Source: an uncultured Amphritea sp. | GTDB lineage: Bacteria > Pseudomonadota > Gammaproteobacteria > Pseudomonadales > Balneatricaceae | Direction: 5' to 3' | Assembly: GCA_963669425.2 (NCBI GenBank) | Contig: CAXXNC010000002.1 | Location: 2,074,618-2,138,617 of the forward strand | DNA length: 64,000 nucleotides | Shown: positions 25,216 through 47,844 of the stretch, piece after piece | Position numbering within the stretch: the first letter of the stretch is position 1 | Layout of the letters: each line of letters opens with the position of its first letter | The notes under the pieces: generated by a model | What the model was told of the DNA's origin: nothing | The model's database searches: none | Seen by the model: the letters and a program-made list of their open reading frames with translations, nothing else | Made by a program: the position numbers and the translations under genes

Positions 25216-25291
25216 TCCTCGATAGCTCAGTTGGTAGAGCAGTAGACTGTTAATCTATTGGTCGCTGGTTCGAGTCCAGCTCGAGGAGCCA
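25216..25291 (+). tRNA. tRNA-Asn(GTT)
   Basis: 76-nt cloverleaf, anticodon loop CT-GTT-AA, TTCGA T-loop, CCA end. Confidence 0.96.
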
Positions 25292-25319
25292 ACATCAGAA
25301 ACCGTGAATTTGGATATAT

Positions 25320-25395
25320 TCCTCGATAGCTCAGTTGGTAGAGCAGTAGACTGTTAATCTATTGGTCGCTGGTTCGAGTCCAGCTCGAGGAGCCA
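25320..25395 (+). tRNA. tRNA-Asn(GTT)
   Basis: Identical copy of 25216-25291. Confidence 0.96.
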
Positions 25396-25406
25396 TCCAC
25401 TCAGGA

Positions 25407-25483
<77 letters not shown>

Positions 25484-25564
25484 CTTTCTCTGACTATAGA
25501 GAATAAACAGTGGTAAAATTCTGAGACACGCATGAACAACTCGTGTATAAATACTGTTCTTCGT

Positions 25565-25641
25565 CGGGGCATAGCGCAGCCTGGTAGCGCATCTGCTTTG
25601 GGAGCAGAGGGTCGTAGGTTCGAATCCTGCTGCCCCGACCA
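25565..25641 (+). tRNA. tRNA-Pro(TGG)
   Basis: Same body with anticodon arm TCTGC-TTTGGGA-GCAGA. Confidence 0.96.
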
Positions 25642-25661
25642 CTTAAAAGTCGTAAGAAATT

Positions 25662-25723
25662 GCGCATCTGCTTTGGGAACAATTCAGATAGGGTCATAGG
25701 CTAAAAACCTGCTGCCCGACCAC
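25662..25723 (+). pseudogene. Decayed tRNA-Pro fragment
   Basis: GCGCATCTGCTTTGGGA...GGGTCATAGGCTAAAAACCTGCTGCCCGACCA: no 5' acceptor strand, broken anticodon stem and T-loop. Confidence 0.75.
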
Positions 25724-25781
25724 TTTCTTAAGTGAAAAAAGACACATACCATCCAATGTGTATAAACATAAGGATTTTAGT

Positions 25782-25858
25782 CGGGGCATAGCGCAGCCTG
25801 GTAGCGCATCTGCTTTGGGAGCAGAGGGTCGTAGGTTCGAATCCTGCTGCCCCGACCA
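25782..25858 (+). tRNA. tRNA-Pro(TGG)
   Basis: Identical to 25565-25641. Confidence 0.96.
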
Positions 25859-43374: not shown

Positions 43375-43484
43375 GGTGACCCTACCAGCCACATCCCGGC
43401 ACACGAATCCACCGCTGTGGCTGCTCCCTTCCGGGCCTGACCAGATTCACGGCTTATCGTTGCGGGAGGACCAATAGGGTCACC
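43375..43484 (-). ncRNA. ffs: Signal recognition particle RNA (4.5S)
   Basis: The minus strand contains the helix-8 motif GGTCAGGCCCGGAAGGGAGCAGCC inside a long hairpin closed by GGTGACCCT/AGGGTCACC. Confidence 0.93.
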
Positions 43485-45129: not shown

Positions 45130-45636
45130 ATGAGCGCTGATCAGAGCCGCCGGTTTGTTGGCCGGCTTTTTACTCACATGACCTGGATCGTGATTCTGGG
45201 CCTGTTTTATCTGCTGTTTGAAGATCAGCTGTTACAGCGTGAGAATCCAAACCATAACCTCACAGTAGTAAGCGCCGGAGAACCAGTCGTACTGCAGCGC
45301 AACCGCCAGGGGCACTATGTCGCACCCGGTGAGATCAATGGTGTTCCGGTGACCTTCCTGCTGGATACCGGCGCAACCGATATCAGCATACCGGGCGCAC
45401 TGAGCAAAAAGCTCAGACTTAAAGCGGGACAACCGTTTTATGCCCGCACAGCCAATGGCACGATTGAGGTATACAGCACGGTACTGGACAGAGTCTCACT
45501 GGGTGGTATCGAGCAGCGTAATGTCAGAGCCAGTATCAACCCGCACATGGATAGCCGGACTATTTTGCTGGGAATGAGTTTTATGCAGCATCTGGAAATG
45601 ATCCAGCGAGGCGATACACTGACGCTTAAGCCATAA
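45130..45636 (+). CDS. Clan AA (retropepsin-like) aspartic protease
   Basis: N-terminal TM, GHY...GEING, FLLDTGAT and LLGMSF. Confidence 0.92.
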   Translation: MSADQSRRFVGRLFTHMTWIVILGLFYLLFEDQLLQRENPNHNLTVVSAGEPVVLQRNRQGHYVAPGEINGVPVTFLLDTGATDISIPGALSKKLRLKAGQPFYARTANGTIEVYSTVLDRVSLGGIEQRNVRASINPHMDSRTILLGMSFMQHLEMIQRGDTLTLKP

Positions 45637-45686
45637 AAAAGAGTTCTGAAGCAATCAGCCCTGAGAACAGATCAAGGAGTCAGCCA

Positions 45687-46112
45687 ATGCAACTACCGGA
45701 ACGGTTCAAGGTTTATCAGGCCACCGCCATTTTCAGTATGCTCTTTGCTCTGCTCGGTTTCAGTTACAACGTCTGGCGGATGGAGGTAACCGAGCATAAC
45801 AGCAATGTCCGGACCGCTAGCTTTGAGATTTTACTGGAGCTGTCGCAGCTCGAGCAGATGATCTACAGCTTACATTACGATAAGGATCAGATTAACGGTA
45901 GTCCCCGCCGGGGCTGGGTCAAAGTAGGCCTGGTTGAAGATCTGAGTATGCTGACCAGCCCGACCATCAGCGCAGAAGCAATTACTCTGAAACAAACCTG
46001 GGGCCGGAACTGGGATAGCATTGAAACTCATCGCGATTCCGTTGACGAGGTGATCGGTCAGATCGACAATGTTCGCAGTGAAATTAAAGCGACGCTGAAA
46101 ACCCTGCGCTAG
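45687..46112 (+). CDS. Hypothetical membrane-anchored helical protein
   Basis: AGGAG RBS; N-terminal TM; 141 aa. Confidence 0.72.
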   Translation: MQLPERFKVYQATAIFSMLFALLGFSYNVWRMEVTEHNSNVRTASFEILLELSQLEQMIYSLHYDKDQINGSPRRGWVKVGLVEDLSMLTSPTISAEAITLKQTWGRNWDSIETHRDSVDEVIGQIDNVRSEIKATLKTLR

Positions 46113-46162
46113 CATATTGCATCCACCAGGCTTTCTGGCGTAGAATCCAGCTGTTCAAAAAT

Positions 46163-46364
46163 ACATCAAGAGAGGGACTGACGTCCTCGCCAACCTGCCA
46201 ACCTGGGCAAGGTGGTTTCTCGGATAGCCGGACTGCTTACATTAAGCAGCGACTATCAGAAGATGTGGTCATTACCGACAACCAAGCAGGACGCTGGATA
46301 CCCCATCCGGCATACAGGCTTTCCCAAGGTATTCCACGCACGTCAGTTCTCATGAAAATGGGAG
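46163..46364 (+). ncRNA. SAM-I superfamily (SAM-I/IV-like) riboswitch with translational expression platform
   Basis: P1 ACAUC/GAUGU, J1/2 AAGAG, P2 GAGGGAC-UGAC-GUCCUC, P3 GCCAACCUGCC/GGCAAGGUGGU with the AA/U asymmetric loop, long P4; hairpin UUCUCAU-GAAA-AUGGGAG buries the SD. Confidence 0.75.
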
Positions 46365-46371
46365 CATTGTC

Positions 46372-46692
46372 ATGTTTGAAGCACATGTTTATAACGAGCA
46401 GGATTCAGCAGCCTTTGAATTCAGCGATCCGATTCTGACAGCAGGCCAGCACTACCGTTGCTGGCATCCACTGTATCAGTGCAATGTCCGGGTCTGGTTG
46501 GCAGCAGGTAAGCGTCAGAACAACAACCAGCATTTTCTCTATGTCGAGTACCGTAATCAGGATAATAGCCATGGCTACCGGTCAGTTGAGATTCCTCAAC
46601 AGACTCTGCGGCGTTCTGCCTTGCAGGAATTACTCAGCAATCTACCTCTGAGCAGAGAGCTTGATCCGACCCGCACCGAACGCTGGAGCTGA
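46372..46692 (+). CDS. Hypothetical protein downstream of the SAM-type riboswitch
   Basis: GGGAG SD 7 nt before the ATG; 106 aa; no recognised motif. Confidence 0.65.
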   Translation: MFEAHVYNEQDSAAFEFSDPILTAGQHYRCWHPLYQCNVRVWLAAGKRQNNNQHFLYVEYRNQDNSHGYRSVEIPQQTLRRSALQELLSNLPLSRELDPTRTERWS

Positions 46693-46809
46693 GATCTATC
46701 CCCCGCCCTGGATAGGCGGGGCTGGGTAATTATTTGATCTGCCTCCTTAAAAACCTGCGGGGATGCCGATATATTAGGGATACATTCTCTGCACAGGGCC
46801 GGATACGGC

Positions 46810-47844
46810 ATGATCAGCATTCGCAAGCGTACCTTCGAAATACTCGATATTGGTAAAAAGCAGGATCGGCTCAGCCGGGTTATCGATATTTTCCTGGTAG
46901 TGCTGATTTCACTGAATGTGTTATCAGTCATTCTGGAAACCCTGCCCGCGCTCAGCGACCGATACCATGGTTATTTCCAGGCATTCGAGCTGTTTTCGGT
47001 GCTGATCTTTACCGTTGAGTATCTGGCACGGGTCTGGTGTTCGGTTGAAGATGATGAACTGAAACGCCATTCGCCTCTGATGGCTCGGATTCGTTACATG
47101 CTTACCCCGATGGCACTGATCGATCTGATCGTTATCCTGCCGTTTTATCTGAGCATGTTCGTCACGGTGGATCTGCGCTTTATGCGGGTACTGCGACTGT
47201 TGCGGGTGTTCAAGCTGACCCGTTACTCGTCTTCAATGACACTGCTGCTGCAGGTCCTGCAACGGGAGTCCCGATCCATAGCTGCGGCCATGTTTGTGTT
47301 GTTTATGCTGATTATCGTGGCTTCAAGCCTGACCTACTTTGCTGAACATGACGCCCAGCCTGAAGCGTTCAGCAGCATTCCCGCTGCCATGTGGTGGGCG
47401 ATCATCACCATGACCACTATCGGTTACGGCGATGTTGTGCCAGTTACAGTTATGGGCAAGATTCTGGCAGCGATCATCGGCATTATGAGCCTCGGCATTG
47501 TCGCCCTGCCCGCCGGTTTGCTGGCATCCGGCTTCAGTGAAGCCCTGCGCCAACGCCGCCGGACTTACGAAAAGATGGTCGATCAGGTACTGCAGGATGG
47601 CTACGTGGATGATTATGAGCAAAAAGCCCTGAATCAGATGCGCGAATCATTGGGCATTACCCAGGAGGAAGCCGCCCATATTCTGCATACTAACCAGACC
47701 CGTAAGCAGGAGCAGGACTTCGAACGGGACCTGCAGGCACTCAGAAAAGAGATAGAGGCGGTCAAAGAGGATCGCTGTCCGCACTGCAATCATACTGTTC
47801 ATTGGCTGGAGCGACGTAAAGATCGCAACGAAGAAACAGAATGA
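46810..47844 (+). CDS. Voltage-gated-type potassium channel (6TM ion transporter)
   Basis: S4 RFMRVLRLLRVFKLTR, pore helix AMWWAIITMT and filter TIGYGD. Confidence 0.92.
   Translation: MISIRKRTFEILDIGKKQDRLSRVIDIFLVVLISLNVLSVILETLPALSDRYHGYFQAFELFSVLIFTVEYLARVWCSVEDDELKRHSPLMARIRYMLTPMALIDLIVILPFYLSMFVTVDLRFMRVLRLLRVFKLTRYSSSMTLLLQVLQRESRSIAAAMFVLFMLIIVASSLTYFAEHDAQPEAFSSIPAAMWWAIITMTTIGYGDVVPVTVMGKILAAIIGIMSLGIVALPAGLLASGFSEALRQRRRTYEKMVDQVLQDGYVDDYEQKALNQMRESLGITQEEAAHILHTNQTRKQEQDFERDLQALRKEIEAVKEDRCPHCNHTVHWLERRKDRNEETE

Follow-up and report, generated by a model that had tools for sequence, protein, structure and literature searches.

How could a riboswitch aptamer control a gene whose Shine-Dalgarno (SD) sequence lies far downstream of it? 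This question is raised by a locus in the window, i.e., the whole stretch of 64,000 nucleotides (nt) analyzed here, from an uncultured Amphritea sp. (GenBank assembly GCA_963669425.2, contig CAXXNC010000002.1, positions 2,074,618 to 2,138,617 of the forward strand). In this locus, an S-adenosylmethionine (SAM) riboswitch precedes a gene that starts at position 46372 of the window and encodes a 106-aa orphan protein. An earlier note on this DNA had proposed a translational SAM-OFF switch. Based on sequence comparison with related leaders, we consider it likely that the locus carries a SAM-I/IV riboswitch working as a strand-exchange OFF switch on translation initiation of the 106-aa gene. All positions given below are those of the window.

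The aptamer belongs to the SAM-I/IV class

Our cmscan analysis identified a SAM-I/IV aptamer (Rfam RF01725) at positions 46158-46295 of the forward strand, with a score of 64.4 bits (the gathering score of the model is 41.1 bits), an E-value of 1.5e-10 and a match over the entire model (1-99 of 99). It is the single copy of RF01725 in the whole genome. The elements of the aptamer are the following:

46163-46167, forward strand: P1 5′ strand, ACAUC, partner of 46262-46266 (cmscan structure line).
46262-46266, forward strand: P1 3′ strand, GAUGU, partner of 46163-46167 (cmscan structure line).
46172-46188, forward strand: P2 hairpin, with G46172 paired to C46188, 46174-78 paired to 46183-87 and A46173 bulged (cmscan alignment).
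46189-46216, forward strand: P3, with the conserved internal loop CCAACC / AAGGUGG and loop L3, AACCUG (46200-05) (cmscan alignment).
46223-46257, forward strand: P4, a hairpin in the junction, unusually long (35 nt) (minimum free energy [MFE] folds; an insertion in the Rfam model).
46268-46279, forward strand: P5 (SAM-IV numbering), the external hairpin that follows P1; stem GUC(A)/(C)GAC, loop UUAC (cmscan alignment).
46287-46290, forward strand: 3′ strand of pseudoknot 2 (PK-2), CAGG, pairing with CCUG at 46202-05 in L3 (complementarity).

Based on the cmscan alignment, the SAM-I-type core is present, with P1, J1/2 (AAGAG) and P3 bearing its CCAACC / AAGGUGG internal loop, and all upper-case consensus positions of RF01725 are matched in the window and invariant in its relatives too. 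P2 consists of 6 bp with loop L2 of sequence UGAC (46179-82), and it has neither an internal loop nor a kink-turn. In SAM-I and SAM-IV, the tip of P2 is taken up by pseudoknot 1 (PK-1), which is missing in SAM-I/IV (Weinberg et al. 2010, supplement, PMC2864571; PMC6890682); as the definition of the class requires, there is no PK-1 at the P2 tip of the window RNA. Because the class lacks this pseudoknot, L2 is free of a tertiary partner. P4 has been described as part of SAM-I/IV (PMC6890682), and every related leader has a hairpin at this position; its tip varies. The external hairpin contains one non-canonical A-C pair flagged by cmscan. PK-2 covaries in the relatives, where at least five variants occur (CCUG/CAGG, CCUAG/CUAGG, CCCG/CGGG, CCCGG/CCGGG and GACUUG/CAAGUC). 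By all its computable defining features, the window RNA is a member of the known SAM-I/IV class, a more specific assignment than had been made before, and it is predicted to bind SAM.

Two mutually exclusive helices share the switch segment

The elements of the expression platform and the gene that follows them are the following:

46174-46184, forward strand: aptamer partner of the "on" helix (anti-anti-SD strand), GGGACUGACGU, pairing with 46340-50.
46340-46350, forward strand: switch segment (anti-SD strand), ACGUCAGUUCU, partner of 46174-84 (ON) or, through 46346-50, of the SD arm (OFF).
46346-46365, forward strand: SD-sequestering hairpin of 8 bp with the GNRA loop GAAA (46354-57), -8.2 kcal/mol.
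46360-46364, forward strand: SD sequence, GGGAG, 7 nt upstream of the ATG at 46372.
46372-46692, forward strand: regulated gene, encoding the 106-aa orphan protein starting MFEAH (open reading frame [ORF] list).

The aptamer side of the long-range helix is composed of the P2 5′ strand (46174-78), the whole of L2 (46179-82) and two bases of the P2 3′ strand (46183-84). With the switch segment it forms 11 pairs, 9 of them Watson-Crick and 2 of them G-U (G46174-U46350 and G46176-U46348), at -15.4 kcal/mol (RNAduplex). In the sequestor, UUCUCAU (46347-53) and AUGGGAG (46358-64) contribute seven pairs, and G46346-C46365 closes the stem as the eighth. The earlier note had described both structures, i.e., a hairpin at 46347-46364 hiding the GGGAG of the gene at 46372, and 11 pairs (9 Watson-Crick, 2 G-U) between 46174-46184 and 46340-46350 that overlap the 5′ arm of this hairpin. 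Its reading of the hairpin agrees with the sequence, to which we add the closing pair, its count of the long-range pairs is exact, and the overlap is accounted for by 46346-50. It had also given the span of the switch as ~160 nt; this holds for the window, where P2 and the invading segment are roughly 155 nt apart, but it is peculiar to the sub-clade of the window, with ~100-180 nt in the relatives, counted from P2 to the start of the switch segment. The long distance in the window is due to the long P4 (46223-57) and to a sub-clade-specific linker hairpin (46293-311), which is described below.

Because both use 46346-50, the long-range helix and the SD sequestor are mutually exclusive. The long-range helix also excludes P2 directly, as 46174-78 and 46183-84 are common to both, and its incompatibility with P1 is topological, the 3′ strand of P1 being enclosed by the helix and the 5′ strand being outside it. 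The "on" state would accordingly take apart P1 as well as P2. A weak additional hairpin of the "on" state (46351-74, with GGAG looped and the AUG in the stem) was also considered; the relatives retain just a 4-bp CAUG/CAUG of it, and it was treated as a chance structure.

Conservation and covariation of the competing helices

Among the genomes sampled, RF01725 was found in 43 of 101 of the same family and in 28 of 201 of the same order. Within its class, it is nearly confined to this order (1 match in ~397 other genomes). In all 43 family-level genomes with the aptamer, a segment that immediately precedes and overlaps an SD hairpin is complementary to the P2 5′ strand plus L2 of the same leader; such a segment is also present in 17 of 29 order-level loci. 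The relatives all carry a GGAG-type motif aligned with the SD sequence of the window.

We aligned 56 distinct leaders from several families of the same bacterial order, fusing the P1-P2 region of each to the sequence running from 10 nt ahead of the switch to the start codon. The long-range helix reaches 95.3% pairing in this alignment, and 7 of its 11 pairs show double (compensatory) changes, whereas control helices slid by 1-3 columns are 28-45% paired. On four of five covariation measures, the observed values were reached by none of 500 shuffles; for the remaining measure, further pair types, 29 of 500 shuffles reached them. The two structures that compete with the long-range helix are conserved in the same way, P2 being 97% paired with double changes at all six pairs, and the SD sequestor being 84% paired with double changes at six of its eight pairs. 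Without guidance, RNAalifold returned the long-range helix as the consensus structure. The comparison thus supports the three-element logic proposed before, in which two exclusive helices are formed by three elements (aptamer segment, switch segment and SD sequence).

Independent replacements illustrate this covariation. A compensatory change from G-C to A-U at 46177:46347 is seen in the window sub-clade and in L007-type leaders, and further events include U-A to C-G (L034), C-G to U-A (L070), UAAC/GUUA (L006) and GAGG/CCUC (L013). In L018 and L025, the sequences are largely rewritten and the long-range pairing still matches. Within the genus, the loop of the sequestor is GAAA, GAGA or GUAA, all of them GNRA loops. 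Additionally, four close relatives share the platform (46326-46380) with 100% identity although their proteins are just 72-76% identical, which suggests that purifying selection acts on the platform RNA.

Some observations, here and in the folding models below, weigh against the proposed switch. Among dinucleotide shuffles of the leader, 15 of 2000 matched or exceeded the stability of the duplex, i.e., the complementarity is only moderately unlikely within one sequence, and another aptamer 11-mer (starting at 46227) scores -16.0 against the leader, on par with the reported duplex. The 56 aligned sequences include many close relatives, and cell counts therefore overstate the independent events; for the most divergent leaders, the register was aided by cutting the sequences at the site of the best duplex. 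Single-sequence statistics are too weak to decide, and the case beyond chance rests on conservation and covariation in the relatives. That the 11-nt complementarity is a chance match and the SD hairpin has nothing to do with the aptamer, as the shuffles and the equally scoring 11-mer might allow, can be given next to no credence: position and pairing are kept in 56 leaders of several families, compensatory changes affect 7 of the 11 pairs, the slid controls stay at or below 45%, and RNAalifold recovered the helix independently. As far as computation goes, this explanation is refuted by the comparative data.

Folding models of the two states

In nearest-neighbour models of the window leader, the ON fold (-73.0 kcal/mol) and the fold with P2 and the sequestor (-70.7 kcal/mol) are nearly isoenergetic, and the MFE structure flips between them as the transcript lengthens. 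Using a partition-function model, we found that locking P2 lowers the accessibility of the SD sequence in the window from 0.61 to 0.01, and that it reduces the modelled accessibility in 50 of 53 relatives.

Two results of the same modelling are less favourable to a switch. When a proper P1 is enforced, the OFF fold of the window is 11 kcal/mol less stable than the ON fold, and in ~30 of the 53 relatives the SD sequence is predicted to be more than 90% paired even without the P2 lock; many relatives thus show no clean equilibrium switch in the model. Nearest-neighbour energies may be inadequate here, with the balance between the two states set by tertiary and ligand energies that such models cannot compute, or the decision may be kinetic, as transcription reaches the switch segment ~10-20 nt before the SD arm. 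Equilibrium modelling across the relatives cannot tell kinetic from thermodynamic control and is consistent with a switch, not conclusive for it.

The SD pairing predicted for many unconstrained relatives would also be expected if the long-range helix were a constitutive, ligand-independent architecture or a folding trap, with the SD hairpin setting a fixed low level of translation or answering to temperature or a protein. We regard this as improbable. The helix excludes P2 and, topologically, P1 in a well-conserved SAM aptamer, and it shares five nt with the sequestor; both alternatives are conserved with compensatory changes, which would be difficult to account for in an RNA that does not switch between them. 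Moreover, as shown below, other leaders couple this invader to terminators.

A probable second helix in the "on" state

The "on"-state MFE structure contains one more long-range pairing:

46334-46338, forward strand: candidate second "on"-state strand, CCACG, pairing with UGUGG at 46264-68.

Its partner, UGUGG (46264-68), comprises the P1 3′ strand and the first base of P5. The linker could not be aligned in register for a column-wise covariation test, and this helix was therefore judged by a contingency count. Across 58 leaders, GAUG[U/C]GG tracks CC[A/G]C, with 15 leaders of type U/CCAC, 13 of type C/CCGC, three of the wobble type U/CCGC and none of the non-pairing type C/CCAC (Fisher p = 3e-6, uncorrected for phylogeny); 25 of the 58 lack the motif. 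A second "on"-state helix between 46334-38 and 46264-68 thus appears to exist. If it forms, the invader of the window is one uninterrupted stretch of 17 nt (46334-50) that captures both P1 and P2.

Proposed mechanism

In the presence of SAM, the occupied aptamer (the P1-P2-P3-P4 junction together with PK-2) would hold P2 and P1 shut, leaving the switch segment (46340-50) without its aptamer partner. The 3′ half of this segment, together with 46351-53, would then zip onto 46358-65, and the resulting GNRA-capped hairpin would bury GGGAG, so that the ribosome could not load and translation would be OFF. In the absence of SAM, the apo aptamer would be loose, and the switch segment could nucleate on the four unpaired bases of L2, which may act as a toehold (UGAC with GUCA). 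Pairing would spread from there into the P2 stem to give the 11-bp helix 46174-84:46340-50, and the adjacent CCACG (46334-38) would probably capture the P1 3′ strand (46264-68) as well. With the anti-SD strand withdrawn, the SD sequence would stay single-stranded and the gene would be translated (ON).

The same two folds could also act mainly through Rho-dependent termination, or through faster mRNA decay, following an untranslated leader or ORF start. In most relatives, the linker ahead of the switch is rich in C and poor in G (e.g., CCCCCAC), the kind of sequence that Rho favours, and dual control of translation and Rho has been reported for other riboswitches (PMC10907184). In addition, two leaders of the same order wire this invader to transcription termination (see below). 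Nevertheless, the conserved, covarying element is the SD-containing hairpin, as selection for translational control predicts, and a Rho effect would be secondary to it. Furthermore, no intrinsic terminator was found in positions 45600-47000: hairpin 46346-65 runs into AUUGUCAUG, and by this search the window leader is not a terminator-type SAM riboswitch. We therefore judge Rho or decay as the dominant output to be unlikely, and control of translation initiation remains our preferred reading.

Other platform designs in the order

In leaders L010 and L025, which belong to other families of the same order, the P2 invader is likewise present, and it overlaps the 5′ arm of an intrinsic terminator (a hairpin with a U-tract behind it). 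Because the invader is wired to termination in these two leaders, this aptamer-invader combination is compatible with control of transcription. Both leaders precede a gene for another small protein (132-142 aa); the next gene of L010 has a product beginning like SAM synthetase (MetK).

Two further designs were observed. The invader of L003, L004, L005 and L023, CUUGAUGC, has its complement in the P1 5′ strand and J1/2. L008 and L021 represent the other design: their SD sequence directly follows the external hairpin and seems, as judged by eye only, to be the PK-2 strand itself, resembling the Rfam consensus and the marine metK examples.

A broader reading, to which we give slightly less than even confidence, is that the SAM-I/IV switches of the Oceanospirillales-type order around Amphritea share a module, not found described, in which a contiguous invader enters through the P2 loop, unzips P2 and often also captures the P1 3′ strand, and that has been wired to SD sequestors as well as to terminators, beside the P1-invading and SD-in-PK-2 designs. 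Such a module would be a natural strand-displacement switch with a hairpin-loop toehold, and it would point to a part, as yet unknown, of the MFEAH family in SAM or methionine physiology.

The leader outside the aptamer

46117-46146, forward strand: candidate sigma-70 promoter, with -35 TTGCAT (46117-22), an 18-nt spacer and -10 TAGAAT (46141-46) (read from the sequence).
46293-46311, forward strand: linker hairpin GCUGGAU-ACCCC-AUCCGGC, 7 bp (MFE folds).

In four close relatives, TTGCA and TAGAAT are invariant despite variable flanks; the TTGCAT/TAGAAT pair is not among the sites listed by a consensus promoter scan. From this candidate promoter, we infer a transcription start a few bases upstream of the aptamer. 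The linker hairpin is kept in the four closest relatives, with one compensatory change from A-U to G-C (L074), and it is missing from other genera; it is specific to the sub-clade and probably serves as a spacer. An ORF running from the AUG of P1 (46263) to the UGA at 46353-55 was also considered. It was rejected, as its frame and length are unconserved (in L061 it stops after 9 codons) and it lacks an SD sequence.

The regulated gene and its neighbours

The MFEAH start of the 106-aa protein is conserved at 36 loci. The protein matches no Pfam or NCBIfam family, and its homologues are all named "hypothetical" in the databases. Relatives of 100-140 aa are located behind the same riboswitch in several families (L007-L071), none of them annotated. 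The family has the core H..C.l.vW.a.GKRKD...(w)FlYiEYr, plus a late TR.W motif. Its AlphaFold2 model is confident (predicted local distance difference test score, 84.8) and consists of a four-strand antiparallel sheet and two C-terminal helices, for which no fold match was found in the PDB (best E-value 0.47; template modelling score at most 0.34).

The neighbouring genes are not conserved. Because the downstream genes differ between genera, the 106-aa gene is apparently the sole gene under the switch, as it is in many genera. The orphan family may act in SAM or methionine physiology in an as yet unknown role. A 168-aa protein encoded two genes upstream of the riboswitch (45130-45636, forward strand) contains a retropepsin-like aspartyl protease domain (PF13975/PF13650). 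Elsewhere in the window, a five-tRNA cluster (25216-25855, forward strand), made of two repeated pairs and one further gene, and the gene for the small signal recognition particle RNA (4.5S; 43380-43476, reverse strand) have an ordinary housekeeping look.

The proposed switch would tie the SAM level to an uncharacterised, well-folded family of 100-140 aa, and the solitary position of the gene behind the switch in many genera gives a handle on the function of this family. Additionally, the invasion of an internal hairpin through its loop, in dozens of natural variants with translational and transcriptional outputs, offers a comparative model for strand exchange, and the lineage could be used for studying toeholds, branch migration and ligand locking in natural RNAs. 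For annotation, the locus indicates that aptamer models alone miss where and how such a switch acts.

Comparison with known systems

The SAM-I/IV class corresponds to the "SAM-I/SAM-IV variant" of Weinberg et al. 2010 (PMC2864571), and a crystal structure of the env87 SAM-I/IV aptamer (Trausch et al. 2014) is cited in PMC6890682. The window RNA resembles this class in its full-length match, its SAM-I-type core, its unsplit P2 without kink-turn or PK-1, P4, the external hairpin and PK-2. In the Rfam consensus and in the marine metK examples of Weinberg et al. (PMC2864571), the SD sequence (AaGGAG) is located in or next to the PK-2 tail, ~10 nt past the external hairpin. In contrast, PK-2 (CAGG) is not the SD sequence in the window, a separate strand-exchange platform is located 50-85 nt further on, P4 is unusually long (35 nt), and the regulated gene is an orphan and not a methionine or SAM gene. 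We found no description of a SAM-I/IV expression platform of this design in the literature accessible to us, which left out the primary structure paper (Trausch et al. 2014). The platform variant is well supported by covariation and, as far as we found, undescribed.

The SAM-I riboswitch of Xanthomonas campestris, SAM-I(Xcc) (PMC7270179), is likewise a gammaproteobacterial SAM-clan aptamer that acts mainly on translation, with an SD / anti-SD hairpin and a long platform. It differs in being a SAM-I RNA with a kink-turn and PK-1, in controlling a met operon, and in having a three-hairpin platform that also binds uncharged initiator tRNA (PMC7270179). Nothing in the window leader suggests tRNA sensing.

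The terminator/antiterminator leaders of the Firmicutes S-box (SAM-I) share the SAM-OFF logic, and in L010 and L025 the invader takes the place of the antiterminator strand. The S-box antiterminator uses the 3′ side of P1, whereas the window-type invader uses the P2 5′ strand and L2, and the window itself has no terminator.

The E. coli thiM thiamine pyrophosphate riboswitch and the Vibrio add adenine riboswitch are examples of the anti-SD / anti-anti-SD strand-exchange design. Strand-exchange riboswitches, in which the switching sequence is most commonly located in the first helix, P1, have been termed the least understood mechanistic group (PMC10907184), and P1 is the helix invaded in almost every case studied. 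With the translational OFF switches of this group (PMC10907184), the window leader would share the three elements, the two exclusive helices and a ligand-stabilised aptamer that releases the anti-SD strand. It would depart from the usual arrangement in that the main invaded helix is the internal P2, entered through its loop, and in that the invader is probably bipartite, with a short helix taking the P1 3′ strand, and is located 155 nt downstream of P2.

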